Below, in pieces: positions 547 through 26,751 of a DNA stretch of 64,000 nt (its first letter is position 1; the number at the start of each line of letters is the position of its first letter). Where the stretch lies: positions 10,614-74,613 of the forward strand of contig CAZTKR010000001.1 in the NCBI GenBank assembly GCA_964614115.1. The letters are read 5' to 3'. Below the pieces are notes generated by a model. It was not told the DNA's origin. It was given only the letters and a program-made list of their open reading frames with translations, and searched no databases. This DNA is from an uncultured bacterium. Its GTDB lineage: Bacteria > Zhuqueibacterota > QNDG01 > DSAB01. A program made the translations under genes and the position numbers.

Positions 547-1923
547 ATGGAACATGATGATACCATCGTCGCTGTTTCGACGCCGACCGGCTCGGGCGGC
601 ATCAGCGTGATCCGTATCAGCGGAGCCGATGCGATTCCCCTGGTTCAGCGTGTGTTCCGGGGAGGCGACATACAGGGATCGCGGGGATACAGAGCCTATC
701 ATGGATGGATCGTGGACGATTCAGAGCCCATCGACGAGGTGGTTCTCACTGTTTTCCGTGCGCCCCATTCTTACACGGGTGAGGATGTGGTGGAGATAAG
801 CTGCCACGGGGGCGTTTTCCTGGGCCAGTGTATCGTCGAGCTTCTGGTTGCCCATGGCGTACGCCCCGCCCAGCCCGGTGAGTTTACCCAGAGGGCATTC
901 CTATCTGGAAGGATGGATCTTTGTCAGGCCGAGGCCGTTGCAGACCTCGTACAGGCAAGAACAGAGGCATCCAGGAAAGTGGCTGCCTATCAACTGGAAG
1001 GGCGCCTGTCCGAAAGACTGAAGAAGATGCGAGAGCAACTGGTCCAGGCGTGCTCCCTCCTGGAAATAGAGCTCGATTTCAGCGAAGAGGATGTGGCGTT
1101 CACGTCACGGACGGAATTGATGGCCATGCTGAATGCCATGAAAAAAGAGATTGAGTCCATCGTATCCAGCTTCGACAGGGGAAGGGTGTGTCGTGAAGGT
1201 ATACGCATGGTCATCGTGGGCCGGCCCAACGTGGGCAAATCCAGCGTATTGAACGGGCTCGTGGAGAGGGAGCGGGCCATCGTCACCGAAGTGCCGGGTA
1301 CGACGCGGGATACTGTGGAGGATGTGCTGGACATCGGAGGTTTGTTGTTCATTATTACGGACACGGCAGGAATCCGCGAATCAGAGGATATTGTGGAGAG
1401 AATCGGTGTTCAGAAGGCCAGGCAGGCCCTGAGCGCCGCAGACCTTGTCCTATTGATATTCGACGGCAGCGAAGCCCTGACGGACGAGGACGAAGCCGTC
1501 GTTCGTACGATAAAGGAAATGGGGAAGCGGGAGATCGGAGTCATCAACAAGGTCGACCTGCGGGTGAAAGCAGACACGAAACGCATAAAGGCGTGGTTGC
1601 CGGGAGCACCCCTGGTAAGGGTGTCCGCCCTGAAGCAGGAGGGTTTCCCGGGACTCATCCAGAAGATAGAAGAGATGGTCTTGGCCGATGGCATTCCCCA
1701 TGCGGGCGAGGTCGTGCTTACCCGCGTACGGCACAGGGACAGCCTGAGCAAAGCGAAAGCGGCCATCGAGCACGCCGAGGACTCTTTAAAGATGGGGATG
1801 TCCCAGGAATTCGTCGTGGTTGACCTTAGGGAGGCGCTGGATTCCCTGGGAGAAATCACGGGAGAGACCATCACAGACGATATCCTGAACCGTATTTTTT
1901 CGGAATTCTGCATCGGCAAGTAG
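547..1923 (+). CDS. mnmE: tRNA modification GTPase MnmE (TrmE)
   Basis: 458 aa. The N-terminal domain and the G-domain (GRPNVGKSS, DTAG) are present. The C-terminus ends in the CIGK motif characteristic of MnmE. Confidence 0.95.
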   Translation: MEHDDTIVAVSTPTGSGGISVIRISGADAIPLVQRVFRGGDIQGSRGYRAYHGWIVDDSEPIDEVVLTVFRAPHSYTGEDVVEISCHGGVFLGQCIVELLVAHGVRPAQPGEFTQRAFLSGRMDLCQAEAVADLVQARTEASRKVAAYQLEGRLSERLKKMREQLVQACSLLEIELDFSEEDVAFTSRTELMAMLNAMKKEIESIVSSFDRGRVCREGIRMVIVGRPNVGKSSVLNGLVERERAIVTEVPGTTRDTVEDVLDIGGLLFIITDTAGIRESEDIVERIGVQKARQALSAADLVLLIFDGSEALTDEDEAVVRTIKEMGKREIGVINKVDLRVKADTKRIKAWLPGAPLVRVSALKQEGFPGLIQKIEEMVLADGIPHAGEVVLTRVRHRDSLSKAKAAIEHAEDSLKMGMSQEFVVVDLREALDSLGEITGETITDDILNRIFSEFCIGK

Positions 1924-1939
1924 TGTTCCACGTGGAACA
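1924..1939. repeat. Perfect 16-bp palindrome TGTTCCACGTGGAACA, copy 1 (CACGTG core)
   Basis: Seen directly in the sequence, immediately after the mnmE stop codon. The 15-nt string TGTTCCACGTGGAAC recurs at 3851-3865. Confidence 0.7.
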
Positions 1940-1958
1940 TTTTGCGTGAGCAAAACCA

Positions 1959-3875
1959 GTGAAAAGCAAGACCGCATATGATGTCATCGTCGTCGGGGGA
2001 GGGCACGCCGGTTGTGAGGCCGCCCTGGCGGCATCGCGTATGGGCGCACGAACCCTCCTCATCACGATGAACATTCCGACCATCGCCCAGATGTCGTGCA
2101 ATCCGGCCATCGGCGGGCCGGCCAAGGGGCATCTGGTCCGGGAGATAGATGCCCTGGGGGGTGAGATGGGCGTGGCCATCGACAAGACGGGCATTCAGTT
2201 TCGGATGCTGAACATGTCCAAGGGGCCTGCCGTCTGGGCGCCCAGGGCTCAGGCAGACAGGCAGGAATACTCCACACAGATGCGGTGGGCCCTGGAGTCT
2301 CAAGAAAGGCTGACGATTTTTCAGGGAATGGTCACAGGTCTGGGTGTTCGGGGTGACAGCATCGACGGTGTGGAGACAGAGACGGGACGACGGATCAACA
2401 GCAGAACGGTGATCCTCACGTGTGGGACCTTCCTGAACGGGCTCACCCACATAGGGCTCAAGAGCTTCCCCGCGGGCAGGGCCGGCGAGTTCCCGGCCGT
2501 GGGCTTGACAGAGAGTCTGGTGTCCCTGGGATTCGAAGCGGGCCGGTTGAAGACGGGAACGCCGCCCAGGGTAGACGGCCGGAGCATCGATTTTACCCGG
2601 ATGGAAATCCAGCCGGGCGATGCACAACCGCGTCCCTTTTCCCACAGGACAGAAAAAATCGAAGTCGATCAAATTCCCGTCTACTTGACCTACACCCATC
2701 CGGGCACGCACACGATACTGGCTTCGGGCCTGGATCGTTCACCCCTATACACGGGTAAGATTGTCGGCGTGGGCCCTCGGTATTGTCCCTCCATCGAAGA
2801 CAAGATCGTCCGTTTCGAGGATAAAGAGCGTCATCAGATCTTCCTGGAACCGGAAGGCAGGCGGTCGCATGAGTACTACGTGAACGGATTTGCCACCAGC
2901 CTACCCGAGGAGGTTCAAATCGAAGCGCTGAGAACGATTCCTGGGATGGAGAAGGCCGAAATCACCCGTCTGGGGTATGCCATTGAGTACGATTTCTTCC
3001 CGCCTACCCAGCTGAGGCCGACCCTGGAGACCAAGCGTATCCATGGCCTCTTCCTGGCCGGACAGATCAACGGGACGTCGGGGTATGAAGAGGCGGCGGC
3101 TCAGGGGCTGGTAGCCGGGATCAACGCGGTTCTCATGATACGGGGCGAACAACCGTTTCTCCTGGACCGATCCGACGGGTACATGGGCGTGCTTATCGAC
3201 GACCTGGTGACCAAGGGCACGAACGAGCCCTACCGCCTCTTCACGTCCAGGGCCGAGTATCGGCTGCTGCTCCGCCAGGACAACGCCGATCGACGGCTGA
3301 TGAAACATGGCCATCGCCTGGGCCTGATCCCCGATGCGCTGTATGACCGGTTGCAGCGTAAAGAGGCGTTCATTCAGAAGGCACTGGAGGATGTCCGCCG
3401 CATCAAGCCTGATTTGGACATCGTCAACCCGATTCTTCGGGAGTTGGACACCTCACCCCTGGATACACGGCAGAGTCTGCACCAGCTCCTCAAGCGTCCC
3501 CAGGTCGGACTGGAAAATCTGAGTCCGATTTCCGAGGTTGAGAATCTGATGGAGGCGTGGGGTGATTTGCGTAAAGACGTGATGGAGCAGGTCGAGATCG
3601 AGATCAAGTACGAGGGATACTTCCAGCGGCAGAAGGAAAGGATTCAACGGTTCAAGCGATTGGAGGAGAAGCGCATCCCGGAGACGTTGGATTTTCGGGC
3701 AGTCACGACCCTGTCAAAGGAGGCCAGGGAAAAGCTCAGCCAGATCCGGCCCGTCTCCTTGGGGCAGGCGGCCCGCATATCGGGCGTATCGCCGGCGGAC
3801 ATTTCTGTCCTGACGTTGATTCTGGATAAAACAACCAAAGAGCGCAGGCATGTTCCACGTGGAACTCATCGGTGA
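1959..3875 (+). CDS. mnmG: tRNA uridine 5-carboxymethylaminomethyl modification enzyme MnmG (GidA)
   Basis: 638 aa. FAD-binding N-terminus YDVIVVGGGHAGCEAA. Full-length GidA architecture. GTG start. Confidence 0.95.
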   Translation: MKSKTAYDVIVVGGGHAGCEAALAASRMGARTLLITMNIPTIAQMSCNPAIGGPAKGHLVREIDALGGEMGVAIDKTGIQFRMLNMSKGPAVWAPRAQADRQEYSTQMRWALESQERLTIFQGMVTGLGVRGDSIDGVETETGRRINSRTVILTCGTFLNGLTHIGLKSFPAGRAGEFPAVGLTESLVSLGFEAGRLKTGTPPRVDGRSIDFTRMEIQPGDAQPRPFSHRTEKIEVDQIPVYLTYTHPGTHTILASGLDRSPLYTGKIVGVGPRYCPSIEDKIVRFEDKERHQIFLEPEGRRSHEYYVNGFATSLPEEVQIEALRTIPGMEKAEITRLGYAIEYDFFPPTQLRPTLETKRIHGLFLAGQINGTSGYEEAAAQGLVAGINAVLMIRGEQPFLLDRSDGYMGVLIDDLVTKGTNEPYRLFTSRAEYRLLLRQDNADRRLMKHGHRLGLIPDALYDRLQRKEAFIQKALEDVRRIKPDLDIVNPILRELDTSPLDTRQSLHQLLKRPQVGLENLSPISEVENLMEAWGDLRKDVMEQVEIEIKYEGYFQRQKERIQRFKRLEEKRIPETLDFRAVTTLSKEAREKLSQIRPVSLGQAARISGVSPADISVLTLILDKTTKERRHVPRGTHR

Positions 3876-4512
3876 GTTGCTGGAAAGGGAAGGCATACGT
3901 CCGCCCTTTCCCGTCGTTCCTCTTTTTCGCCGGTATTGGGAGATGCTTCTCGACTGGAATCAGAGAATCAACCTGGTATCCAAAAACGATGAAAGACGGC
4001 TTGTGACCCGGCATTTCCTCGAGTCCCTGGGCCTCATCAAGGTCGTGCCGTTTCCTCCGGACGCCCGGGTGATGGACTTGGGATCTGGCGCAGGATTCCC
4101 GGGCATTCCTCTGAAGATTGTGCGGCCCGATCTTCGTATGGTTCTGGTGGAATCCAAGCGCAAGAAGATTCTTTTTCTCCGGCACGCGATCAATACCCTG
4201 GGCCTGGAAAACATGGAGGCCGTGCTGGGAAGAGTGGAGCAGTTGGCAGAAACGCTGGGACGGTTCGATTTTGTCGTCAGTCGGTCGGTGGCGAGCCTGG
4301 TGAAGTTGGCAAGGTGGAGCAGGGCGTACTTGGAGAAGAGCGGCGGGCAGCTCGTCGTGATCAAGGGTCCCGGCGCTCAGGAGGAATTGGTTGGATTAAA
4401 GGCCAAAGCGTCTGCCCTGGGAATCAAGGACGTGCACGTCGTCGCATACAATCCTTTCCCGGAATGGCTCGATCTGAAAAAAAGTGTGGTGGTAACCGTT
4501 CGATGGGGATAA
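3850..4512 (+). CDS. rsmG: 16S rRNA (guanine527-N7)-methyltransferase RsmG (GidB)
   Basis: 220 aa. SAM-binding motif DLGSGAGFPGIPL. The N-terminal region aligns with E. coli RsmG. It overlaps the mnmG 3' end by 26 nt in another frame. Confidence 0.9.
   Translation: MFHVELIGELLEREGIRPPFPVVPLFRRYWEMLLDWNQRINLVSKNDERRLVTRHFLESLGLIKVVPFPPDARVMDLGSGAGFPGIPLKIVRPDLRMVLVESKRKKILFLRHAINTLGLENMEAVLGRVEQLAETLGRFDFVVSRSVASLVKLARWSRAYLEKSGGQLVVIKGPGAQEELVGLKAKASALGIKDVHVVAYNPFPEWLDLKKSVVVTVRWG
3851..3865. repeat. Palindrome TGTTCCACGTGGAAC, copy 2 (14-bp perfect core GTTCCACGTGGAAC)
   Basis: The same 15-mer as at 1924-1938. It overlaps the rsmG start codon and the last codons of mnmG. Confidence 0.7.
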
Positions 4513-4594: not shown

Positions 4595-7846
<3,252 letters not shown>

Positions 7847-7890
7847 TGTATATTTTTTAGATGTTGTCCTATTCTTCTATTGGAGGGAGT

Positions 7891-9603
7891 ATGAAATATC
7901 GTTGCCTGATGCGGGTTTTTTTCCTCGTTCTTCTCGCCGGCTGTGGGAAGAAGGACCCCATCGTAGCCGTCATCGGCAATAAGCAGGTGATCACTTTAAA
8001 CGAGTTCAAGGAGGATTTTTCCCGAGGCAAGAGCACGGAAGCGGTGGAAACCTCCTCGCCCTCGAGATTGCTGAATCATCTGAATCATATGATCGACACA
8101 CGGATAAAAATCCTGGAAGCCTATGAGATGGGGCTGGAGCGCGACTCTGCCGTCGTTGCAAAGGTCGTCCCGACACGCACACAGGCGCTGTTCAACAGGC
8201 TCTATGAGACCGAGATCGTCGATCACATGGTGAAAGAAACGGATATACGGGCGTATTTTGCTCATATGGGCAAGGAGGTCGTGATCCGTAAGATCACGTT
8301 TCGTTGCGAAGCCGATTCGTCCTCGGAGGAAGAGGCAAAGAGGAAGGCTCAAGACGTTTTAAGTCAAGCCCGAGCCGGAGAGGATTTTGCAGCACTGGCC
8401 AGGACGCATTCCGAGGATAGGGGATCGGCCATGAACGGGGGCTTGATGAATCCTCTGGTATGGACGCAACAGAACGATCCCGTGAAGGATAGGGCGTTTA
8501 CGATGCAGGAAGGTGATATCTCTGGACTCATCAAGGACAACACAGGATATCACATCATCAAGGTCGAGAAGATACGGGAGAAAGAGCGTGATCCTTATCA
8601 CGAGGTTCGTGAGGAGATTCGTCAGAACCTGATTGCAGCAAATCGGCAGGCCATTGCCGAAGAAGCCAGAGCATACTGGTCAAAAGTAATGGAAGATAAA
8701 GGAGTGTTTTGGAATGAGGAGGAGTTGGAGTACCTTGTGCAGAGACTAAAGTCGGTAAAGGACCCGAGAAGGGATATCCTCGCAGACAGCTTGGATGGGC
8801 TGAGTCCCGAGGAAAAAGAGAAAGTTCTGGTACAGCACAAGGAGGGACAGATTACAGTTCAGGATTTTGAAGAGAAAATCCAGGAATATCCACAGCATAC
8901 GCGGTTTCCCATTGATCAGACGAGTGGTCTCAAACGTCTTTTTGAGCAATGGTTGATGAGAAGAATGTTGCTGGAAAAGGCCGTCAGTAAAGGTCTGGAA
9001 AAAGACAAAGCCGTCGTCGAAGAACTGCAAAAGACCACGGAGCAGGAAATCGTTCGTGTTCTGATGGACCGCTTTGTCATCGGGGAGATAAAACCCAGGG
9101 AAGAAGCGCTGAAGCTCTATTATGAAAGAAACAGAGAGGAAAAATACTCTGATCCCGAGAAAGTGAATGTTCAGGAAGTCATGGTTAAGGACGAGGACAT
9201 GGCCAACCGGATTGCTCAATGGGCCAAAGCGGGAAGAGATTTTAGCAAGCTGGCCCGGGATTATACGGAAAGACCGGGGTATAAGAACAAGGACGGCATT
9301 CTGGGTTTTTTCGCTCAGGGACGATGGGGTGACATGGGTGAGAAGGCATTCACCCTTAAGCCCGGCGAGGTAGCCGGACCCATCCCTTTGAAGAACGACC
9401 GTGGATTTTCCGTGATCAAGCTGCTAGAGCAAAGGCCATCCCAGGTGAAACCCTATGATGAAGTGAAAAGCCGGGTTCGGAATGATTTGATCAGAGAGAT
9501 TAAAAAGGATCGGGAAGAACAGTGGTTGGAAGAAAAGAGAAACAAATACAGTGTGAAGACATATGAAAACGTTTTACGAAAAGCGATACCCAGAGCATCG
9601 TAA
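7891..9603 (+). CDS. Periplasmic parvulin-type peptidyl-prolyl isomerase and chaperone, SurA/PpiD family (lipoprotein)
   Basis: Lipoprotein signal MKYRCLMRVFFLVLLAGC. Parvulin domain GYHIIKVEK plus chaperone-like flanking regions. RBS GGAGGG 5 nt before the ATG at 7891. The ORF track begins at 7861 with an N-terminal extension. Confidence 0.75.
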   Translation: MKYRCLMRVFFLVLLAGCGKKDPIVAVIGNKQVITLNEFKEDFSRGKSTEAVETSSPSRLLNHLNHMIDTRIKILEAYEMGLERDSAVVAKVVPTRTQALFNRLYETEIVDHMVKETDIRAYFAHMGKEVVIRKITFRCEADSSSEEEAKRKAQDVLSQARAGEDFAALARTHSEDRGSAMNGGLMNPLVWTQQNDPVKDRAFTMQEGDISGLIKDNTGYHIIKVEKIREKERDPYHEVREEIRQNLIAANRQAIAEEARAYWSKVMEDKGVFWNEEELEYLVQRLKSVKDPRRDILADSLDGLSPEEKEKVLVQHKEGQITVQDFEEKIQEYPQHTRFPIDQTSGLKRLFEQWLMRRMLLEKAVSKGLEKDKAVVEELQKTTEQEIVRVLMDRFVIGEIKPREEALKLYYERNREEKYSDPEKVNVQEVMVKDEDMANRIAQWAKAGRDFSKLARDYTERPGYKNKDGILGFFAQGRWGDMGEKAFTLKPGEVAGPIPLKNDRGFSVIKLLEQRPSQVKPYDEVKSRVRNDLIREIKKDREEQWLEEKRNKYSVKTYENVLRKAIPRAS

Positions 9604-10495
9604 GTGTCGAGCCATCGGAAGAGGCGCTTCCATCGCTTCGATCTGTGTGATAATTCTCCTCCTGTTGAAATGTGGAGTCCGCGTGGATGACGACGAAGTC
9701 GTGGCCCGGGTCGGTAATGCTGTTTTAACGAAAGAGGATATGAAGCAACGGATGAACTGGGAGGGTGTAGGCCCAGACCAGGAAAGCGATTTCGTCGACC
9801 GGTGGGTTGATCGCGAACTCCTCTATCAAGAGGCCAAGAGATTGGGATTAGACAAGGCTGTGGAGCTTCAGTGGGAAATCGAGCTCGTGGAGAAAGAATA
9901 CGTGATCCAAAAGCTGCTGGAGAGGACATTCATCCAGGAGGTCGAGATCACGGAAGAGGAAATCGCCGACTATTACGAGAGACACAAGGATGAATTCCAG
10001 GTGGATGAAGAGGAGGTGCGGGCACTCCATATTTTGAAGGATACCAAAGCCGAGGCCGATATCGCACGTCAGGAAATCATAGCAGGTAAACCGTTTGAAA
10101 CTGTGGCCAGGGAATCCTCCGAGGGCATCTTCAGGGAGAGAGGAGGGGATATGGGTTTTTTCCGAAGGGGGGATGTCATACCGGAGATAGAGCGGTATGC
10201 TTTCCGTCTTTCCGAAGGGCGGGTATCACGGGTTTTTCAGAGCAATTATGGTTTTCATATCATCAAGGTCATAAAGAAGCGTGCCAGGGGAGACTATCGC
10301 GACTTATCGGAAGTCCGGGATGATATATTCCATCAACTCCGCGTGAATAAAGAACGTTCTGCCTACTATGATCTCCTGTTCCAACTGCAGAACAGGACTA
10401 AGGTGTCCGTCACGATCCCCAGGAGTCTGGAAGAGACGCAGGATACACTGACTGTGCAAACCGAAGAAAATGATTTAGAGGAGTCGGAAAAGTGA
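9563..10495 (+). CDS. Parvulin-type peptidyl-prolyl isomerase (PrsA/SurA-like)
   Basis: 310 aa. Single parvulin domain (NYGFHIIKVIKKRARGD) after a SurA-like N-terminal region. Hydrophobic N-terminus. It overlaps the previous gene's end by 41 nt, so the exact start is uncertain. Confidence 0.7.
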   Translation: MKTFYEKRYPEHRKCRAIGRGASIASICVIILLLLKCGVRVDDDEVVARVGNAVLTKEDMKQRMNWEGVGPDQESDFVDRWVDRELLYQEAKRLGLDKAVELQWEIELVEKEYVIQKLLERTFIQEVEITEEEIADYYERHKDEFQVDEEEVRALHILKDTKAEADIARQEIIAGKPFETVARESSEGIFRERGGDMGFFRRGDVIPEIERYAFRLSEGRVSRVFQSNYGFHIIKVIKKRARGDYRDLSEVRDDIFHQLRVNKERSAYYDLLFQLQNRTKVSVTIPRSLEETQDTLTVQTEENDLEESEK

Positions 10496-11787
10496 GGAAA
10501 CCATTTTTTATCGTCCTATGTGCTGGTTTAGCCCTCTTTTTTTCATGGGCGTCCCATGCCCAGGAAGTTCTGGAGGGAGTCGTTGCTGTCGTTGGGGATG
10601 AGATCATTCTTCGTACCCAACTCATCCAGGCGGCGCAGGGATTCGCCGTGCAGATGGGCGTCAATCCCAGGAACCAGCCCCAGGAGTTCGAAAAGATCAA
10701 GGACAACATTCTTCAGAATTTGATAAATGAGAAGGTTCTTCTGGCCAAGGCTATCGAGGATACGGTTACTGTGGATGATCAGCAGGTGGAGTCTGCCCTG
10801 GAGTCGCGGATTGAGGAGCTGACCCAGCAATTAGGCTCCAAGGAGCGCGTGGAGGCGTACTTTGGCTCACCCATCCGCAAGATCAAGAGAGATTACAGAG
10901 ATGAGATTCGTAAACAGCTCATCGTCAGCACGGTTCAGCAGGAGAAACTAAGGGACATCAAGGTGTCGCGGAGTGAAGTCATATCGTTCTATGAAACCAT
11001 GAAAGATAGCCTGCCCGATATGAAATCCAGAGTCAAGCTTCGTCACATTCTGATCGATGTGAGTCCAGGTGAGCGTGCAAAACAGCAAGCCATGGAGCGC
11101 ATGCGGGAGATTCAGGAACGTATCCGTCAGGGAGAGGATTTTGCGGAATTAGCCAAGTTGTACTCCGAAGACCCGGGAACCGCATCCAACGGAGGAGCCT
11201 TGGGCTTTGTGGAGAAGGGCACGTTGTTTCAGTCCTTCGAAGAAACGGCGTTTCAGATGGAACCCGGCGAGATTTCCGATGTAGTGGAGACACCGGTGGG
11301 ATTGCATCTCATACGGTTGATCGAGAAGCGAGGCGACAAGGCGAGCATGCGCCATATCCTGATTCGTGTCGAGGTGACCTCTGTGGATGAGAATGCCGTG
11401 CTGGACACCTTGAGACGTATTCGTGAAAGAGTGTTGGCCGGAGAATCGTTTGAAGACCTGGCCCAAAAATATTCCCAGGATGAGACAACAAAAGACGTGG
11501 GAGGCGACTTGGGATGGCTGCCGCCTGACCAACTCCAGATCGAGGCTTTTAAGAGTGCCATCGACACACTCCAGACAGATGAGATCACCCGTCCGTTTAA
11601 AACACAGTTTGGCTATCATATCGTAAAGCTGGAAGGAAGAAGAGGCGCGCGAGAAGTGTCTCTGGAAGAAGACTGGGAACAGGTGGAATACTGGGCACTG
11701 AGTACGAAGAGACAGAAAGTGATAGAAGAGTGGATTGCGGAATTAAGAAAGAAGATCTACATAAAAATCAATGAGGACATGTTGTAG
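10492..11787 (+). CDS. surA: Chaperone SurA (two parvulin domains)
   Basis: 431 aa. Signal peptide. SurA N-domain (VVAVVGDEIILRTQL). Two PPIase domains (GLHLIRLIEKR and GYHIVKLEGRR). GTG start preceded by GAGGAG. Confidence 0.8.
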   Translation: MRKPFFIVLCAGLALFFSWASHAQEVLEGVVAVVGDEIILRTQLIQAAQGFAVQMGVNPRNQPQEFEKIKDNILQNLINEKVLLAKAIEDTVTVDDQQVESALESRIEELTQQLGSKERVEAYFGSPIRKIKRDYRDEIRKQLIVSTVQQEKLRDIKVSRSEVISFYETMKDSLPDMKSRVKLRHILIDVSPGERAKQQAMERMREIQERIRQGEDFAELAKLYSEDPGTASNGGALGFVEKGTLFQSFEETAFQMEPGEISDVVETPVGLHLIRLIEKRGDKASMRHILIRVEVTSVDENAVLDTLRRIRERVLAGESFEDLAQKYSQDETTKDVGGDLGWLPPDQLQIEAFKSAIDTLQTDEITRPFKTQFGYHIVKLEGRRGAREVSLEEDWEQVEYWALSTKRQKVIEEWIAELRKKIYIKINEDML

Positions 11788-13988: not shown

Positions 13989-15215
13989 TCAGCGGCTGGA
14001 TTTTAACTTCAGACTCCGCGTCAGTCTCTGGAATGCTTTCCGGTAAGAATCGGGATTCTTCCAATCCGTGAAATCTCCGACAACACGCGTCTGGCAGATT
14101 TCCGAAGCCCACTCTTCGTCGGATGCCATCACGGCCTCATCCAGACGAATGGGGAACAGGATCCTCTGTTTTCGTCCTTCCTCCTGCCTTAACGCTGTCT
14201 CGACTTCGCGCTTCACCCACGATCTGTGAATCATGCTCTTGGAGAGCACCAACACGAGTTTGTCATAGCCATGTTTGGACTTATGGCTGGACCCTGTCAT
14301 GTCGCCACCCGTTTTCATATCCTCCGGACAAAGCCAGCAGCGAATGCCCTTTTCCTGCAAATCACCGTGAATTTTCTGGGCAAGCACATCGTCTTCATGG
14401 GAATAGCCGATAAAACAGGTGTAGTACGGTATGGGCTTGTCCGAGGGCTTTGATGGCAGGACCTTGATTATCCTGTCTGGAAGGCCGACGCCTCTCAGAA
14501 AAGAGATCGGCAATCTGCCGGATCGGCACAGTGTGTCGTGATCGATGATGCTGGGCCCGTGATGGATGCAGGACGCCAGGTTTTTCACGCGGCTCAAATC
14601 GGTGAATCCGAAGACGGTCTTATACAGGCGCACCTGTTTGAAATTGGTGTTGTGCAGAAGTGATTCTGTCAGATCGGCCCCACGGAGATTGGCTCTGCTG
14701 AAATCGGTCTTGCTCAGATCGGCTCCGTAGAGATCGGCTTCGGTAATATCGGACTCGCAGAGGTCGGCTCCTTTGAGCGTGGCTTTACAGAGGATGGCGG
14801 AACGGAGACGGGTCCCGCTCAGGTTGGCTTGGTCCAGGACTGCGCCGCTGAGATCGGCTTCGATAAGGTTGGCTCCGCCCAGGTCGGCCTCGCTAAGGTC
14901 GGCATTGCGGAGATTGGCCAGGCTAATGTAAGCACCACTTAGGTAAGCCCCGTTCATAACGGCACCACTGAGACAGGCTCCGCTGAGATAGGTACCGTTG
15001 AGGTCGGCTCTGCTGAGATCGGCCTCCCGGAGGTCGGCACCGCTGAGATCGGCCTCGCTGAGATTGGCTTCGCTGAGGTCGGCCTTGACGAGCTCGGCCA
15101 TACGGAGATTGGCCAGATTGAGATCGGCCTTCTTACCCTCACTTCCGCCAGACATTACCCATTGCTTATGTTTTTCAAGGATTTTTTCAAGCTGTGGTGT
15201 TGTGGATTTTTTCAT
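13989..15215 (-). CDS. Pentapeptide-repeat protein fused to a C-terminal TIR domain
   Basis: 408 aa. Residues ~25-215 form about 35 consecutive pentapeptide repeats (ADLSE/ANLSE/ADLRE...). Residues ~265-400 show TIR hallmarks: YTCFIGYSHEDD (beta-A/alpha-A), GIRCWL, KTGGD (BB-loop), LVLVLSKSMIHRSWVKREVETAL (conserved Glu). No recognisable Shine-Dalgarno sequence. AT-rich non-coding DNA follows. Confidence 0.85.
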   Translation of the reverse strand: MKKSTTPQLEKILEKHKQWVMSGGSEGKKADLNLANLRMAELVKADLSEANLSEADLSGADLREADLSRADLNGTYLSGACLSGAVMNGAYLSGAYISLANLRNADLSEADLGGANLIEADLSGAVLDQANLSGTRLRSAILCKATLKGADLCESDITEADLYGADLSKTDFSRANLRGADLTESLLHNTNFKQVRLYKTVFGFTDLSRVKNLASCIHHGPSIIDHDTLCRSGRLPISFLRGVGLPDRIIKVLPSKPSDKPIPYYTCFIGYSHEDDVLAQKIHGDLQEKGIRCWLCPEDMKTGGDMTGSSHKSKHGYDKLVLVLSKSMIHRSWVKREVETALRQEEGRKQRILFPIRLDEAVMASDEEWASEICQTRVVGDFTDWKNPDSYRKAFQRLTRSLKLKSSR

Positions 15216-15693
15216 GTCAGGCTTCAGAAATTATTAAAAAGGAATATTTTTAGCGACGTCGCGCTTTGCCTAGACAAAGCATTCCAAAGCTGTAACCCTC
15301 TCCCTGGTGCACAGAAATCCGCATTTTGTCTATTACTAAAAAGAAGGATATCAGAATACAACATAAAAAATTTACAATAAAAAGCAAGGACTAATGAGTG
15401 GATTGCTGCCTCGACGATCAGTGGGTTTTCCATTTGATCTTTTGGGAAAGATTCTTATATTACGCGTGCGATGCAAAAACCGACGGACTTAGAGTAATCC
15501 TCTGACGGATGGAAATTACAGTCCAGCCCCCAGGACGGGCCTTGACCTATGCGCATCAGCGGCATCGTCTTCTGCTCTATCTTCCAAGAATCACTCCCGA
15601 ACAGGTGTTTGTCCCGTCCTTTTACTAGGATGACACGATGAAAATATACGTACTCTCCCCGAGCTTTGGAATCGAGAAATAAGGAATATCAGG

Positions 15694-18126
15694 ATGCCTA
15701 TTCGCAAGCTCTTCCTCTTCGCTCTCCTGTTTTTTTGTGTCTTCTCGAATACCCGTGGCCAAGAAGCAGAGATGAGCGAACTGTCGGACCTTACCGTTGA
15801 AAAGATCATGCGGGATCCCCGGTGGATGGGTGTATCGCCCAGTGAAATCACCTGGTCGGAAGACGGGCAACGCATTTACTTCAACTGGAATCCCGAAAAA
15901 GCCGAGAGTGACTCCTTATACGTGGTGTCCAGAAATGGCGGTACACCCCGTAAGGTGAGTTTGGCCGAGAGGAGAGTGCTCCCTGCCAGTCAGGGCGATT
16001 ATGACCGGTCCTGGTCCCGAAAAGTGTATGAGAAGGACGGCGACATTTTCCTCCTGGACATCAAGCGATGGAGGATCAGGCAGATCACCCGCACGGTCGA
16101 GGTGGAACGAAATCCCCGTTTTACCGCCGACGGGAAAAAGGTCACGTATATCAAAGACCGGAATTTATATCTCTGGCATATCGATAACGGAGAGATCGTT
16201 CAGCTCACCGATTTCCGTGACGGTTTTCAGAAATCCGAGAAAGAAGAGCCAAAGATCGACCAGGAGAAATGGCTGAAAAAAGAAGAAGCAGAGCTTGTCG
16301 GGTATTTAAAAAAGCAAGCAGATCTGAAAAAGTTATCCGAAAAAAACAAGAAAGCCGTGTTGCCCGAGAGACCGAAGAAGATCTTCGTCGAGGATAAAGT
16401 AGTGCAGGATGTGCAGTTGAGCCCCGGCGAGCGCTTCATCACCTTCGTCCTAAATAAACCGGCCAGGCAGGCCAAGCGGACGATGGTCCCCAATTATATC
16501 CATGAGACGGGATTCACAGAGGTCCTTGATGCCCGTACCAAGGTGGGAAGCACCCAGAGTACGTACCAGCTGGGCGTGTACGATATAAAGGAAGATACTG
16601 TCCTGTTCGTTTGCACAGAAGACATTCCGGGAATCTACGATCGGCCTGCGTATCTGGAAACGTATGATGAAGCGGGCTCAGAGGAGGACGCGCAAGAGAA
16701 ATCCCAAGAGACGGAAAAATCCGAACAGAAAAGTGCCAGGGAGGTGATGTTTCCCGACCTGGTCTGGGCAGAGGACGAAGACTGTGCCGTCGTTTCTGTG
16801 ATGGCTCAGGATCACAAGGATCGATGGATCATGCTCCTGGAGCCGGATTCGGCCAGGCTGAGGCTCCTGGATCGCCAGCATGATGACGCCTGGATCGGCG
16901 GACCGGGCATACGGCGTTGGCGGCGGCAGGGGCCCGTCCTCGGCTGGATGCCCGACGGCAGGCGGGTTTGGTTCCAGTCGGAAGCATCAGGCACCTCCCA
17001 TCTCTACACCGTCGATATCCAGACGGGTGAGAAAACGGCCCTGACCAGCGGCCCTTTCGAGGTTTATACGCCCCGAATCTCTCGGGATAAAAAACAATGG
17101 ACATTCACGTCCAACGAGGCGCATCCCGGCGAGCGGCATTTTTACCGCATGCCCATCGATGGCGGAAAGGCTGTCCAGACAACCCGGATGGAGGGTTCGA
17201 ATCAGGTTTTTCCATCACCCGACGGGAAGATGCTGGCCGTCTGTCATTCGGTCAGCAACCGGCCTTGGGAGCTGTTCATCATGGAGAACAAGACCGGCGC
17301 TCCAGCGAAACGCATAACCCATTCCCTGAGCCCGGAGTTCCTGTCGTATCCATGGCGCCAGCCCGACGTGATCACGTTTCCGGCCCGCGATGGAGCACGC
17401 GTCCATGCGCGTCTGTACCGTCCAGCGAATCCAGAGCCGGGGGGCCCGGCCGTGATCTTTGTTCACGGTGCGGGATACCTTCAGAACGCCCACAAGTGGT
17501 GGAGCCACTACTTTCGGGAATACATGTTCCACAACCTTCTAGTCGATCATGGCTACACAGTATTGGATATCGACTACCGGGCCAGCGCCGGCTACGGCCG
17601 GGACTGGCGAACGGCCATTTACCGGCACATGGGGGGGAAAGACCTGACGGATCAGGTCGATGGCGCCCGGTTCCTGGTCGAAGCATGCCACGTGGACCCG
17701 AAACGAATCGGCATATACGGCGGGTCGTACGGCGGGTTTATCACCCTGATGGCCCTGTTTACCGAACCTGATGTGTTTGCGGCGGGTGCGGCACTTCGAC
17801 CCGTGACAGACTGGGCGCATTACAATCACTGGTACACGTCCAACATCCTGAACGTGCCCTACGCCGACAGCTTGGCCTACGTGCGGAGCTCGCCCATCTA
17901 CCATGCCGAGGGGCTGAAGGGCGCCCTTTTGATGTGCCACGGCATGGTGGATGTGAATGTTCATTTTCAGGATGTCGTCCGGTTGTCCCAGCGGCTCATC
18001 GAACTGGGAAAGGAGAACTGGGAACTGGCCGTTTATCCGGTGGAGGGACATGGGTTCCGGGAGCCCAGCAGCTGGACCGATGAGTATAGACGCATCTTCA
18101 CGTTGTTCGAGGAGAACCTGAAATAA
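15694..18126 (+). CDS. S9 family serine peptidase (prolyl oligopeptidase/dipeptidyl peptidase-like) with N-terminal TolB-like beta-propeller
   Basis: 810 aa. Signal peptide. Propeller repeats. C-terminal alpha/beta-hydrolase domain with nucleophile motif GGSYGGF and Asp/His downstream. A Lys/Glu-rich linker is present. Confidence 0.9.
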   Translation: MPIRKLFLFALLFFCVFSNTRGQEAEMSELSDLTVEKIMRDPRWMGVSPSEITWSEDGQRIYFNWNPEKAESDSLYVVSRNGGTPRKVSLAERRVLPASQGDYDRSWSRKVYEKDGDIFLLDIKRWRIRQITRTVEVERNPRFTADGKKVTYIKDRNLYLWHIDNGEIVQLTDFRDGFQKSEKEEPKIDQEKWLKKEEAELVGYLKKQADLKKLSEKNKKAVLPERPKKIFVEDKVVQDVQLSPGERFITFVLNKPARQAKRTMVPNYIHETGFTEVLDARTKVGSTQSTYQLGVYDIKEDTVLFVCTEDIPGIYDRPAYLETYDEAGSEEDAQEKSQETEKSEQKSAREVMFPDLVWAEDEDCAVVSVMAQDHKDRWIMLLEPDSARLRLLDRQHDDAWIGGPGIRRWRRQGPVLGWMPDGRRVWFQSEASGTSHLYTVDIQTGEKTALTSGPFEVYTPRISRDKKQWTFTSNEAHPGERHFYRMPIDGGKAVQTTRMEGSNQVFPSPDGKMLAVCHSVSNRPWELFIMENKTGAPAKRITHSLSPEFLSYPWRQPDVITFPARDGARVHARLYRPANPEPGGPAVIFVHGAGYLQNAHKWWSHYFREYMFHNLLVDHGYTVLDIDYRASAGYGRDWRTAIYRHMGGKDLTDQVDGARFLVEACHVDPKRIGIYGGSYGGFITLMALFTEPDVFAAGAALRPVTDWAHYNHWYTSNILNVPYADSLAYVRSSPIYHAEGLKGALLMCHGMVDVNVHFQDVVRLSQRLIELGKENWELAVYPVEGHGFREPSSWTDEYRRIFTLFEENLK

Positions 18127-18206
18127 ATCTCATGGAATACGATGAGACCAGAGATCGGTCATTATAGGATTCAAGGTATCTTTGTGTATTCTGGATTTCG
18201 AATGAT

Positions 18207-18225
18207 GGGTTATCATGATAGGAGG
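18207..18225. promoter_or_regulatory. Palindromic box GGGTTATCATGATAGGAGG (core TTATCATGATA), copy 1
   Basis: An 11/12 match to the perfect palindrome TTATCATGATAA, located at the 5' end of amidohydrolase paralog 1. A 17/19-nt match lies at 21394-21412. Confidence 0.5.
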
Positions 18226-19975
18226 AAGGAGCATGATGTTTAAATCTCCGGTTGGATTTCAGAAAAGAATGCGGATTGGAATTGCCGTCCTATGGATGCT
18301 GGTTTTTCTCATTCCCTGTCACGGCGCTATCGGGAGCGGCGAGTTCGGGAATGTGTATGCCATCAAGGCCGGGAAAATCATCACCGTCACGGGCGGCATC
18401 ATCGAAAACGGGACGATTCTGGTGCGAGACGGCATCATACAGGCCGTGGGTCAGAACATTGTCATCCCACCGGACGCCGAGATTGTGGCGGCCGATACGA
18501 TGTGGGTGTATCCCGGGTTGATCGATGCACACACGTCCCTGGCCCTGAAGCTGCCGACGAAGAAGAGCGACGAGGCTCAGGAACAACAGACACAGACGCC
18601 GGCCAGCAGCGAAGGCAAGGCTTCCCCGGAATTACTGAAATCGGATCGATGTGCCGCCGATCTGTTGAATCCCAAAGACACCAAGATCGCCAAGGTGCGC
18701 CAGGCCGGTGTGACCACCGTGCTGACCATTCCCACCAGCGGGATTTTCATCGGTCAGAGCGCTTTGATCAACCTCTTTGGCGACACGGCCGAAGAGATGA
18801 TACTCAAATCGCCCGTGGCCATGCATCTGGGCTATCAGCGGCAGTCGGGGGTCTATCCGTCCACACTTTTCGGCGTCATCGCGTATCAAAGGCAGACGTT
18901 CCTGGATGCCCAGCACCATCAGCTTCTCTGGGATCGATACGAGAAGCAGAAGGCGGGATGGCGGCGTCCGCTGCCCGATAAATCTCTGGATGCGCTGATA
19001 CCTGTTCTGGAAGGAGATCTGCCCATCATCATCTCGGCCAACAAGGAAAACGAGATGAAGCGGGCCGTCCGTCTGGCCGAGGAGTTCGGATTGAATTACA
19101 TGATCAGCGGTGCCACCGAAGGGTGGCGAGTCGTGGATCTTTTAAAGGCCCAGCAGAAACCGATGCTGGTCAGCCTGAATTTCCCCAAGCCCAAGGACGT
19201 GACGGGTTATGCCTTCAAGCTCAAGGTAAAAGGGCCCGAAAAGGAGAAACCCGACGAAAAGAAGGCAGAGTCGAAGAAGGAGAAAGAAGGCAAAGAGAAG
19301 AAGGAGGAAGAAGATCCCGAGAAGAAAGAAATTTATGCCAATGCCAGCGTGCTCCACAGGGCCGGGATTACGTTCGCGTTCACATCACAAGGCCTGAAAA
19401 AGCCCGATGAATTCATGAAGAATGCGGCCAAGGCCGTGGAGCACGGCCTTGCCAAGGAAGAAGCCTTGAAGGCCATGACCATCAACCCGGCGACCATTTT
19501 CGGCGTGGCCGATCAGGTGGGCAGCATCGAAGAAGGCAAGATCGCCAACCTGGTCATCACGACAGGGGATCTGTTCGATGAGAAGAACAAGGTCAAGTGG
19601 GTCTTTATCGACGGCCATAAGATCGACGTGGAGGAGGCCAGGAAAAAGCCCGATGAGGAACCTGCCGTGGATGTGACGGGAACCTGGGAGATGATGGTCA
19701 CCACCGAGATGGGGGACATATCGGCTACCGTGACCCTGGCACAGACGGGTTCCGAGGTAACCGGTACGTTCAAGAGCGAAATGGGAACGTCGGACATCAC
19801 AGACGGGACAATCAGCGGCAGCGACATCGAATTTAGCGTCACGCTGCCCGTCATGGATCAGCCCAGGGAGTTGGTTTTCATCGGAACCGTGGAGGGAGAT
19901 ACGATGGAGGGCAGTCTCGATCTGGGCGCCATGGGCACGGCCGAGTGGAAGGCCACCCGTCCGGGCTGGGAGTGA
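18215..19975 (+). CDS. Secreted amidohydrolase-superfamily protein (COG1228-like), paralog 1, degenerate metal site, extra C-terminal beta-rich domain
   Basis: Signal peptide (the real start may be ATG 18233, behind AGGAGGAAGGAG). Amidohydrolase fold motifs are present, but the first-strand motif reads DAHTSL instead of HxH. It carries a KE-rich low-complexity insert and a ~100-aa C-terminal extension. Confidence 0.8.
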   Translation: MIGGRSMMFKSPVGFQKRMRIGIAVLWMLVFLIPCHGAIGSGEFGNVYAIKAGKIITVTGGIIENGTILVRDGIIQAVGQNIVIPPDAEIVAADTMWVYPGLIDAHTSLALKLPTKKSDEAQEQQTQTPASSEGKASPELLKSDRCAADLLNPKDTKIAKVRQAGVTTVLTIPTSGIFIGQSALINLFGDTAEEMILKSPVAMHLGYQRQSGVYPSTLFGVIAYQRQTFLDAQHHQLLWDRYEKQKAGWRRPLPDKSLDALIPVLEGDLPIIISANKENEMKRAVRLAEEFGLNYMISGATEGWRVVDLLKAQQKPMLVSLNFPKPKDVTGYAFKLKVKGPEKEKPDEKKAESKKEKEGKEKKEEEDPEKKEIYANASVLHRAGITFAFTSQGLKKPDEFMKNAAKAVEHGLAKEEALKAMTINPATIFGVADQVGSIEEGKIANLVITTGDLFDEKNKVKWVFIDGHKIDVEEARKKPDEEPAVDVTGTWEMMVTTEMGDISATVTLAQTGSEVTGTFKSEMGTSDITDGTISGSDIEFSVTLPVMDQPRELVFIGTVEGDTMEGSLDLGAMGTAEWKATRPGWE

Positions 19976-23890: not shown

Positions 23891-24973
23891 ATGCCGTCCC
23901 AAGAAAAATCCAAGCAGCGGATAGCCCTTCACGCCGATAGTCGTCTCACCGTGTTCCTCTTGAGCATTCTGGTCATCATTGCCCTGGGATTCGTGCTCCA
24001 TCAGCTCCAGGCCATATTCAAACCGCTTCTGATTGCCGTGTTCCTCTCGTTCGTGTTCGAACCCATGGTGGACATCTTTACGAAAATAAAGATACCCAAA
24101 TTCTTAGCCTTCATCCTTTCGCTGATCATCGTGTTTGTGGTCATCGACCTGCTGGGCATGGTCATTTATGCGAACATCGCCGCATTCGTCGATGAGTTTC
24201 CCAAGTACCAGGACAAATTCAACGGGCTGTACACGCGAATCATCGGATTCTTGAGAATCCCCCACGAAGAGGTTCAAAACTACCTGGAAAACATCAAGTG
24301 GACAGAGCTGTGGCAGAAGGCATCCCTGACTCGAATACTCGGGTCTACGGTAGGATCGTTCGTGAATTTTCTGGCGAATCTTTTCCTGATTCTTTTATTC
24401 ACGGTATACATCGTCCTGGGCAGGACGCATTTTCTGATGAAGCTTCGTCGAGCCTTCGATGAGGAACGCACCTTAAAGGCGTATGACGTGTTTATCAACA
24501 TCAACATGGGCATGCAGAAGTATCTCGTGGCCAAGACGCTCATCAGCCTGGTAACGGGTGTGGTGGCGACGATTATCCTCCTGATTTTCGGAATCGAATT
24601 TGCCTTTGTGTGGGGTCTGTTGACGTTCGTACTCAACTTTATCCCCAACGTGGGGTCGATCATTGCCACTATTCCACCGGTTCTTGTGGCCTTCTTTCAG
24701 TACGGCTCCGTATTCCCGGGTGTTTGGGTCGTACTCCTGCTCCTGGCCAATCAGATGACTATGGGGAATCTGGTAGAGCCCCGTGTCATGGGCAAGAGCC
24801 TGAATCTGAGTCCTCTGGTCGTCATACTGTCGTTGATCTTCTGGGGATTCATCTGGGGGCCCATCGGTATGATCCTGGCCGTACCGATTTCCGTGACCAT
24901 TCAGATTATCTGTGCGAACATCGACTCGTTGAGACCGATCAGTGTTTTTATGGGAGGAGATATAGAGTCTTGA
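23891..24973 (+). CDS. AI-2E family transporter (PerM/YhhT-like permease)
   Basis: About 8 predicted TM helices with AI-2E family sequence features. I place the start at ATG 23891, behind GGAGGGAG. The track ORF begins at 23864. Confidence 0.85.
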   Translation: MPSQEKSKQRIALHADSRLTVFLLSILVIIALGFVLHQLQAIFKPLLIAVFLSFVFEPMVDIFTKIKIPKFLAFILSLIIVFVVIDLLGMVIYANIAAFVDEFPKYQDKFNGLYTRIIGFLRIPHEEVQNYLENIKWTELWQKASLTRILGSTVGSFVNFLANLFLILLFTVYIVLGRTHFLMKLRRAFDEERTLKAYDVFININMGMQKYLVAKTLISLVTGVVATIILLIFGIEFAFVWGLLTFVLNFIPNVGSIIATIPPVLVAFFQYGSVFPGVWVVLLLLANQMTMGNLVEPRVMGKSLNLSPLVVILSLIFWGFIWGPIGMILAVPISVTIQIICANIDSLRPISVFMGGDIES

Positions 24974-24984
24974 AAACAATACGT

Positions 24985-26751
24985 ATGGACGGCGAAAAAC
25001 TTTATTGGGCATTTTATTACGGCAAGAAAGAAGTCATCAAACGAAGAAAGCACCTGAACAAGATCAATGTGTTTCCCGTGGCCGACGGCGACACGGGAAC
25101 TAACCTGGCCATGACGATGCAGTCCATCATCGACGGAACGACGAGGACACCCGTTGTCTCCGACGTCAGCCGCGGCATGGCCGAAGCGGCATTGATGGGC
25201 TCCCGGGGCAATTCGGGAATCATCTTTGCTCAATTTTTATGGGGACTGAGTGAAGCGGTACGGGGCAAGAGGATACTGAATCGCAAAGAATTTGCCCATG
25301 CGATGAAGAATGGGGTGGAACACGCGTACCGGGCCATGAAGAAACCGGTGGAGGGGACGATACTGACGGTGATGAAGGCCTGGTCGAACGCATTATCGCA
25401 TCTTCATGAACATACCGGTGATTTTGTCGAACTGCTGAGTCATTCTCTGGACTCGGCCAGAACGTCACTCCGGGAGACGCCCAAAAAGTTGAAAGTACTG
25501 GAGAAGGCGGGCGTCGTGGATGCAGGCGCACAGGGATTTGTTCATTTTCTCGAGGGCATGGTCCATTTTCTCCGGCATGGGAGAAAGCATGACCTGGAAG
25601 CGGACGTCATCCCTGTGCTCGAAGACGACCATGATGCCGTGTTTGCGGCAGACAAGGAGATCGATTACAGGTACTGCACTGAGGCCATCCTCAGGGGAGA
25701 GCGGTGTGTGCCAGACGATGTTCGAGAGGCAGCTTCCCCCTACGGCGATTCTCTAATCGTGGCGGGAGCGGAGAGCCGGGTGAAGGTGCATATACACACA
25801 AACCAGCCGGCCGATTTTTTTTCCGCCCTGCGTCGTTTCGGGGACATCTCTCATCCCAAGGTGGACGACATGCTCCGGCAGCGCGATGTCCAGTTTCATC
25901 GTAAGGCATCCATCGCCCTGGTGACCGATTCGGCATGCGATCTTCCCCAGGAGATCTTCGATCGATACCAGATACACGTCGTGCCCCTGAACATTGTCTT
26001 TGGTGAGAGTCAGTATCTGGACAAGATAACATTGACGCCCGATCAGTTTTACACCATGCTGGAGGACGAACCCGAGTTTCCCAGAACGTCTCAACCCGTG
26101 GTTCGAGCATTCGAGCAGTTATACAGTCGGTTGATTGCCCACTACGATTCCGTCGTTTCCATCCATCTGTCCAGAGCTCTGTCCGGCACCTGGAATGCAG
26201 CGTATGTTGCTTCTCAAAACATCGACAAACGAAACATTGCGGTCATCGATTCGAAGAATTTATCCACCGCATTGGGTTTGATCGTCCTTCGCGTGGCCCA
26301 GGACATACAGGAAGGAAAATCGCTGGAAGAGGTGGTGCGAACAGCCGAGGCGTTACGCACCAAGGCGCGGGTGCTGGTGAGCGTCCGAACACTGAAGTAC
26401 ATGGTTCGAGGCGGAAGAGTCAGCCCGCTGAAGGGAATCCTGGCCAAGGCTCTCAACCTGAAGCCCATCGTGTCGTTGAATGAAGCGGGAGAAACAACGC
26501 TGTACGGAAAGGCCTTCAGCACCCGTTCGAATATCAGGAAGATTCTCAAGATGGTCGAAGCGCATCATCGTGCGTCTACCATCCAGACATACGCTATCGG
26601 GCATGCCCATGCCCAGGACGGGGGACAAGACCTGGCCGAGAGGCTTCATGACATACTCGGTTTTGAGCGGGCGTTTACGATGAATGTGTCACCGGCCATC
26701 GGAGCCCATGCAGGCATCGGTTGCGTGAGTGTAGCCTATCTATCCGATTAA
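24985..26751 (+). CDS. DAK2-domain / DegV-domain fusion protein (YloV-like)
   Basis: N-terminal DAK2 domain (NVFPVADGDTGTNLAMT) and C-terminal DegV fatty-acid-binding domain (IALVTDSACDLP...PRTSQP). The long upstream extension of the track ORF (from 24610) overlaps the transporter gene and is rejected. An alternative TTG start at 24970 has better SD spacing. Confidence 0.85.
   Translation: MDGEKLYWAFYYGKKEVIKRRKHLNKINVFPVADGDTGTNLAMTMQSIIDGTTRTPVVSDVSRGMAEAALMGSRGNSGIIFAQFLWGLSEAVRGKRILNRKEFAHAMKNGVEHAYRAMKKPVEGTILTVMKAWSNALSHLHEHTGDFVELLSHSLDSARTSLRETPKKLKVLEKAGVVDAGAQGFVHFLEGMVHFLRHGRKHDLEADVIPVLEDDHDAVFAADKEIDYRYCTEAILRGERCVPDDVREAASPYGDSLIVAGAESRVKVHIHTNQPADFFSALRRFGDISHPKVDDMLRQRDVQFHRKASIALVTDSACDLPQEIFDRYQIHVVPLNIVFGESQYLDKITLTPDQFYTMLEDEPEFPRTSQPVVRAFEQLYSRLIAHYDSVVSIHLSRALSGTWNAAYVASQNIDKRNIAVIDSKNLSTALGLIVLRVAQDIQEGKSLEEVVRTAEALRTKARVLVSVRTLKYMVRGGRVSPLKGILAKALNLKPIVSLNEAGETTLYGKAFSTRSNIRKILKMVEAHHRASTIQTYAIGHAHAQDGGQDLAERLHDILGFERAFTMNVSPAIGAHAGIGCVSVAYLSD

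Follow-up and report, generated by a model that had tools for sequence, protein, structure and literature searches.

Chromosomal parS sites are the places on which the partition protein ParB (Spo0J) is loaded, and the nucleation of ParB on these sites, the formation of a CTP clamp, its sliding along the DNA, the action of ParA and the loading of SMC were reviewed elsewhere (PMC7333895). The number of parS sites ranges from 1 to 20 per chromosome and the sites are clustered (PMC10197239). For Pseudomonas aeruginosa it was shown that segregation needs one of four origin-proximal parS sites and that any one of them suffices. Two of the four, parS2 and parS3, are the ParB sites with the highest affinity, and parS1 and parS4, which are variants at position 16 (…AACC), are still bound with high affinity. 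These four principal sites are found within 16 kb of oriC and are numbered clockwise, the parAB genes being located approximately 7 kb counterclockwise. The P. aeruginosa gidAB and parAB genes are reported to make up one operon.

Several other ParB-bound elements are known. The parS of Burkholderia cenocepacia chromosome II has the sequence gTTTATGCGCATAAAc. Noc sites (ATTTCCCGGGAAAT) and plasmid or phage centromeres such as P1 parS, F sopC and RK2 OB are short palindromic or repeated sequences that are bound by proteins of the ParB family, which subsequently spread from them, and ParB complexes also bridge and condense DNA. A survey by Livny and colleagues from 2007 reportedly presented the general chromosomal parS consensus and described a low copy number as well as clustering of the sites in the gidA-gidB-parA-parB region.

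The window, i.e., the whole stretch of 64,000 nucleotides that was analysed, carries two copies of a palindrome, one at either end of mnmG (Table 1). Judged by their sequence both are very probably chromosomal parS sites, on which ParB would be loaded to build the partition complex. The order of the genes, as assigned by Pfam, is yidC (a fragment), mnmE, mnmG, rsmG and mfd. Site 1 occupies the 35-nt spacer between mnmE and mnmG; it directly adjoins the mnmE stop codon TAG (1921–1923), measured to the GTG start codon of mnmG at 1959, its centre is 27 nt and its end (1939) 20 nt away. The first 15 bases of site 1, TGTTCCACGTGGAAC, are found again at 3851–3865, where the 14-bp palindrome spans 3852–3865 and the 16th base is a T instead of the A present in site 1. 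Read in the mnmG frame, site 2 falls among the last codons and encodes H-V-P-R-G-T shortly ahead of the stop codon at 3873–3875, and the ATG of rsmG at 3850 is formed by the A preceding site 2 together with its first bases TG. The start at 3850 is a called one, chosen also by the gene callers in three metagenome contigs of the same organism (L001–L003), and GTG at 3859 and TTG at 3877 are alternative in-frame starts; the 26-nt overlap of mnmG and rsmG given in the preliminary description thus holds if the called start is correct. A location within coding sequence is normal for P. aeruginosa as well, where nine out of ten sites are intragenic. If the sites are parS, their overlap with the tail codons of MnmG and with the rsmG start would be a by-product of an old site residing in a compact operon.

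Table 1. Positions of the two palindromic sites and of the neighbouring genes in the window.
Feature	Positions	Strand	Description
Predicted parS site 1	1924-1939	.	Perfect 16-bp palindrome TGTTCCACGTGGAACA, identical to P. aeruginosa parS2/parS3
Predicted parS site 2	3851-3866	.	TGTTCCACGTGGAACt; 15/16 bases of TGTTCCACGTGGAACA, 14-bp perfect palindrome
mnmE	547-1923	+	Pfam TrmE_N, MnmE_helical, MMR_HSR1; upstream neighbour of site 1
mnmG/gidA	1959-3875	+	Pfam GIDA 6.6e-171, GIDA_C_1st, SAM_GIDA_C; bracketed by both sites
rsmG/gidB	3850-4512	+	Pfam GidB 1.9e-49, match from residue 26
mfd	4595-7846	.	Next gene after rsmG

The assignment as parS is based on the agreement with sites that were studied in distant bacteria. 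A full-text literature search with the exact 16-mer TGTTCCACGTGGAACA returned only papers on bacterial partition systems. All 16 positions of site 1 agree with P. aeruginosa parS2/parS3, the sequence is also identical to the parS of P. putida, and the parS consensus of Myxococcus xanthus is one base away from it. Site 2 shares 15 of the 16 positions with parS2/parS3 and keeps the full 14-bp core, and as a one-base variant at position 16 it resembles P. aeruginosa parS1 and parS4. The 16-mer moreover fits the general chromosomal consensus TGTTNCACGTGAAACA (Bacillus subtilis Spo0J sites), i.e., a 16-bp palindrome with the invariant core GTT.CACGTG.AAC, from which it deviates by a G instead of an A at position 12. 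This symmetric ‘CC/GG’ variant also occurs in Pseudomonas, in Myxococcus and in many of the Bacteroidota loci compared. The sites belong to the chromosomal parS type, unlike the Noc sites or the site of B. cenocepacia chromosome II. By sequence they are canonical parS and not a novel regulatory motif, and a scan for the parS consensus in any annotation pipeline would flag both of them.

The locus differs from P. aeruginosa in several respects. The organism is a member of another phylum, and its nearest relatives among the listed MnmG matches are metagenome-assembled genomes (MAGs) of the FCB group with at most 63% identity. Furthermore, the principal P. aeruginosa sites do not bracket mnmG, since they lie on the clockwise side and parAB, reportedly with gidAB in the same operon, lies counterclockwise. 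Binding of ParB to the identical 16-mer was demonstrated in P. aeruginosa; in the organism of the window a ParB is presumably present and would be expected to bind both sites. Its presence is an assumption because no ParA or ParB gene was found near the sites, and the residual doubt on the parS function stems mainly from this unseen parB gene.

The low copy number and the clustering are in line with a role as parS. The two sites are 1.9 kb apart, and further copies of the core with up to two mismatches are present neither in the rest of the 64-kb window nor in the 10 kb upstream; two copies in this sequence agree with the 1–20 clustered sites per chromosome stated above. The preliminary description had reported the perfect palindrome after the mnmE stop, its recurrence as a 15-mer with a 14-bp core across the mnmG 3′ end and the rsmG start, and the lack of further perfect copies in the 64 kb, all of which was reproduced in position and sequence. 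The 8-mer CCACGTGG, which it placed only at ~17694, occurs at 17688 and 38413. Its argument that two exact copies are unlikely by chance is weak when taken alone, as some ten further, unrelated pairs of exact 15-mers and another six perfect 14-bp palindromes are present in the window. It does stand for the combination of both features: the same palindrome is present twice and fits a known 12-base palindromic consensus, for which ~0.004 matches are expected per 64 kb (64000/4^12) and two were seen, which is far beyond chance. Based on the counts in the window and in related loci, a chance origin was rejected and so was a dispersed repeat; a scattering over hundreds of places, as considered in the preliminary description, is not seen in the sequence examined.

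By analogy with the described systems, a ParB dimer would recognise each of the 16-bp palindromes via its helix-turn-helix domains, bind CTP, close into a clamp and slide onto the flanking DNA. The two sites, being 1.9 kb apart, would seed a single ParB-DNA partition complex that is centred on mnmG and spans mnmE-mnmG-rsmG and the surroundings. ParA-ATP would then move this complex, and with it the chromosome's origin-proximal part, into each daughter cell, and the complex would also load the SMC condensin. Both sites mark the probable centromere, and hence probably the origin-proximal domain, of this uncultured bacterium, which helps to orient the assembly and predicts the places of ParB and SMC loading.

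The surroundings of the sites were searched for partition genes and for an origin of replication. Pfam scans of about 40 large open reading frames revealed no ParA or ParB in the window, and no match was obtained in the window or in contig L001 by tblastn using B. subtilis Spo0J and Soj as queries. This search covered the window and the loci L001–L085, and the queries were validated indirectly, as Pfam confirmed the proteins that they had matched in L082 and L017. Likewise, neither ParA nor ParB is among the gene calls and precomputed Pfam matches for the 10 kb upstream of mnmE (contig L001) and the approximately 10 kb past the window end (contig L166), so that overall no par genes were found in ~84 kb around the sites. 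Upstream of the window the contig of the same organism carries a 1887-residue minus-strand gene, lptF, lptG, rnpA and yidC, resulting in the neighbourhood rnpA-yidC-mnmE-mnmG-rsmG, and in related loci the same order extends into parA-parB. Nearly all genes of the window are on the plus strand and the GC skew is positive throughout the 64 kb. Together with the gene neighbourhood, this would fit a leading strand that runs away from an origin, but a skew switch, dnaA or a DnaA-box cluster was not found within 10 kb upstream. The inspection of GC skew, DnaA boxes and the divergent intergenic region of L001 did not yield a convincing oriC upstream, and neither an oriC nor dnaA nor a GC-skew switch was seen in the sequence examined around the sites. 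The GC skew of the 10 kb on either side of mnmG in 44 related loci, taken as an indicator of closeness to the origin, followed no consistent pattern. The open reading frame at 62371–63711 on the minus strand was rejected as a false antisense frame within a plus-strand GH38 gene.

Five metagenome contigs of the same organism (L001–L005) carry the same sites, the two shortest ending before site 2. One close relative, L086, was obtained from a metagenome scan with RsmG; its MnmG is 95.6% and its RsmG 86% identical. It keeps both copies, site 1 being identical to TGTTCCACGTGGAACA and site 2 being a perfect 16-mer at the same place, and in comparison 9 nt are deleted in frame from the window immediately behind the palindrome of site 2. 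The DNA identity of 92–97% around the sites is too high to show purifying selection within the lineage.

For a wider comparison, 80 species-level loci listed from a scan of a genome collection with MnmG were analysed, comprising 1.41 Mb and mostly derived from Bacteroidota, Ignavibacteria, Calditrichota and the KSB1 group. The nearest among the listed matches, with an MnmG identity of 63–55%, are a ‘Cytophagia’ MAG, KSB1, Calditrichia and Calditrichota, and most of the others are Bacteroidota. Only perfect matches to the core GTTNCACGTGNAAC were counted as sites. Among the 93 sites found in these loci, 87 are at mnmG boundaries, i.e., 63 upstream of mnmG, no more than 250 nt from its start, and 24 around the mnmG 3′ end (from −130 to +250 relative to the stop codon), and six are elsewhere in the 1.41 Mb; the chance expectation is 0.08 overall. 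An upstream site is present in 41 and a 3′ site in 20 of the 80 listed loci, 11 having both. Accordingly, at least one perfect-core site at an mnmG boundary exists in 50 listed loci, and 30, among them many Saprospiraceae, have no site at mnmG. Conservation of the element in relatives, by which the preliminary description proposed to judge it, is therefore seen in these 50 loci as well as for both copies in L086.

The position of the sites relative to mnmG is also similar between distant relatives. The upstream site typically has its centre 8–30 nt ahead of the mnmG start, and in many cases another copy lies 37–55 bp further up. If the 3′ site is inside mnmG, it is usually located at approximately +1890 nt from the start and in the same frame, encoding V-S/P-R-E/G-T, and this frame is shared by KSB1, Calditrichota, Bacteroidales, Flavobacteriia and the window. 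In just seven of the listed loci mnmE is the upstream neighbour of mnmG, which shows that the upstream site travels with mnmG and not with mnmE. The Ignavibacteria MAG locus L082 (CAZVLB010000005.1) has the order yidC-mnmE-parS-mnmG-parS-rsmG with the same two site positions as the window. Its sites have the sequence TGTTTCACGTGAAACA, their positions being just beyond the coding regions, and parA-parB follow directly after rsmG, where the window has mfd; the ParB of L082 was confirmed by Pfam HTH_ParB and ParB_N. The genes parA-parB are also beside rsmG in the relatives L008, L053 and L077. The KSB1 locus L007 shows the layout of the window: mnmG has a site at either end, rsmG and mfd come next, and par genes are missing. 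In most Bacteroidota loci parS is retained at mnmG and no parAB is present within 10 kb, so that it is usual for this clade to have the genes and the sites apart.

Three further explanations of the sites were considered. They might be relics, i.e., the lineage might have lost or retargeted its ParB and the sites might no longer act as centromeres. The lack of parA-parB in the ~84 kb around the sites, when some relatives have both genes right after rsmG, would suit such a loss, as would the 9-nt deletion that abuts site 2 and alters its 16th base. However, the deletion halted exactly at the edge of the palindrome, unselected 16-mers would be expected to decay whereas site 1 is perfect and site 2 retains 15 of 16 bases with the full core, and the persistence of parS at mnmG without nearby parAB in most Bacteroidota loci takes weight from the distance to the par genes. 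We therefore regard a relic as very unlikely. Even less probable is an operator for a dimeric transcription factor recognising CACGTG palindromes, an operator of this kind or a site for DNA looping having been proposed in the preliminary description; the factor would regulate mnmG and rsmG, perhaps through a loop that joins both sites. The sites are indeed palindromic, one preceding the mnmG start by 27 nt and the other lying on the rsmG start, and the 8–30 nt distance usual for the upstream site in relatives is one at which a bound protein could affect expression. All 16 positions are nevertheless identical to validated ParB sites of distant phyla, making a separate regulator dispensable, and in Vibrio cholerae, i.e., in another organism, the gidAB promoter was reported to be unregulated by ParA1/ParB1, so that proteins of the parS region need not regulate these genes. 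What persists of the earlier proposal is the symmetric site for a dimeric DNA-binding protein, and the operon-specific operator gives way to canonical parS.

The least probable explanation, to which we assign hardly any weight, is an RNA element in which stem-loops of the mRNA terminate transcription after mnmE or tune how the translation of mnmG and rsmG is coupled. On their own, the 16- and 17-mers are able to fold into hairpins of 5–6 bp (−6.3 and −5.9 kcal/mol), site 1 is followed by TTTT, and a hairpin at site 2 would bury a portion of the rsmG AUG. Placed in their 81-nt contexts, however, the sites fold no better than shuffled sequences (z = −1.19 and +0.81), and the structures of minimum energy both lack the palindrome hairpin; moreover, a terminator scan gave no plus-strand terminator at either site, and Rfam had no match across the whole window. 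The variation between species points in the same direction. The 89 orthologous sites, i.e., the 87 from related loci and the two of the window, carry at positions 5/12 the combinations C/G (37), T/A (25), T/G (8) and C/A (19), following the known degeneracy of parS at these two positions, and both types of half-site are mixed in 20 of 51 species (the 50 related ones and the organism of the window). At the would-be pair 5/12 the C/A combination is unpairable, and its share of 21% argues against a required stem; these sites agree with the classical parS consensus, which has an ‘N’ as its fifth position. Compensatory changes, which the preliminary description suggested to look for as a sign of RNA structure, do exist in the form of C-G to T-A double changes resembling covariation, but they are equally expected from a symmetric protein dimer. 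In addition, most Bacteroidota have no mnmE upstream, and the contexts of the sites are varied and probably belong to promoter regions. A structured RNA, terminator or coupling hairpin was hence rejected on folding, terminator, Rfam and pairing evidence, and with it the stem-loop that the preliminary description had envisaged for the coupling of mnmG and rsmG.

With both sites read as parS, the association of parS with both ends of mnmG across Bacteroidota, Ignavibacteria, Calditrichota and the KSB1 group is a modest, mildly new point: a description of the parS-mnmG linkage in Bacteroidota was not found in the searchable literature, and the survey by Livny and colleagues may already note it. 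That parS stays close to mnmG even with parAB elsewhere may serve studies of chromosome organisation in Bacteroidota and their relatives, and parS at the ends of mnmG offers a practical way to locate centromeres in MAGs of that group. A more far-reaching and rather doubtful interpretation is that parS-mnmG-parS represents a ‘centromere cassette’ of ancient origin in the Bacteroidota, Ignavibacteria, Calditrichota and KSB1 group, possibly with a functional coupling beyond inherited linkage. Such an arrangement may outlast the relocation of parAB and of the genes next to it. In case of a coupling, the occupancy by ParB might set the expression of mnmG and rsmG, or else the loading of ParB or the entry of SMC might be influenced by the transcription and translation of mnmG; effects of ParB on mnmG or rsmG expression are speculative.

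As a separate observation from the scan with RsmG, some gut-metagenome loci of the order mnmG-rsmG-parA-parB carry a parS with one mismatch just after mnmG and further sites before parA.

The two sequences differ by a 9-nt in-frame indel (GAACACGTT) that directly adjoins parS site 2, a predicted ParB loading site at the mnmG 3' end and rsmG start, at 3866-3867 in the window vs. ~5003-5011 in the close relative L086. In L086 parS site 2 is a perfect 16-mer, and the RsmG N-terminus reads MFHVEHVELI in this locus and MFHVELI in the window. The near-repeats GTGGAAC and GTTGAAC are located on either side of the 9-nt deletion.

In many loci from Bacteroidota, parS occurs twice directly 5' of the mnmG start, with the copies spaced 37-55 bp apart (Table), and this even spacing may reflect a role in ParB loading or in the mnmG promoter. 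For Saprospiraceae, Lewinella and Phaeodactylibacter (loci L016, L019-L021, L023, L032, L037, L039, L042, L066, L072, L079 and L081), no parS-like site was found at mnmG or elsewhere in the 20-kb loci. In this lineage parS may have been moved, altered or lost.

Table. Positions of features in the window and in related loci and contigs
Feature	Sequence	Position	Strand
G+C-rich hairpin between yidC stop and mnmE start	window	~495-540	
Three consecutive PPIase/SurA-like genes directly 3' of mfd	window	7861-11787	+
Pentapeptide repeats with C-terminal TIR domain, 408 residues	window	13989-15215	-
Peptidases: two S9, M24, M19, M28, tricorn-like S41 protease, gamma-glutamyltranspeptidase	window	15694-61552	
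Amidohydrolase-family genes, at least six	window	15694-61552	
Dak2, FakA-like middle and DegV domains in a single 713-residue ORF	window	24610-26751	+
GH38 alpha-mannosidase (gene callers), extending beyond window end	L166, contig reaching past window end	15196-18423	+
Paired parS copies	L009, L015, L018, L027, L043, L067 and others	~10-100 nt upstream of mnmG	

The gap between yidC and mnmE contains a hairpin (GGAACCCCG...GGTGGGGTTC) followed by TTTTATTT, which looks like an intrinsic terminator; it is absent from the output of a simple terminator scan. Further downstream, the order of mfd followed by PPIase is also present in L001, a contig of the same organism, and in the KSB1 locus L007 the ORFs 3' of mfd are similar in length to the PPIase/SurA-like genes of the window.

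The pentapeptide-TIR protein may act in defence or signalling; very few genes of the window lie, like its own, on the minus strand. The Dak2/FakA-like/DegV ORF looks like a fusion of the fatty-acid kinase subunits A and B, and its start is uncertain because it overlaps with the preceding AI-2E transporter ORF.

Finally, peptidases and amidohydrolases are very dense across a large part of the window, suggesting a lifestyle of breaking down proteins and peptides. Close to the window's end, a 446-residue minus-strand ORF (62371-63711) without Pfam match was rejected as spurious; gene callers place the plus-strand GH38 alpha-mannosidase there.
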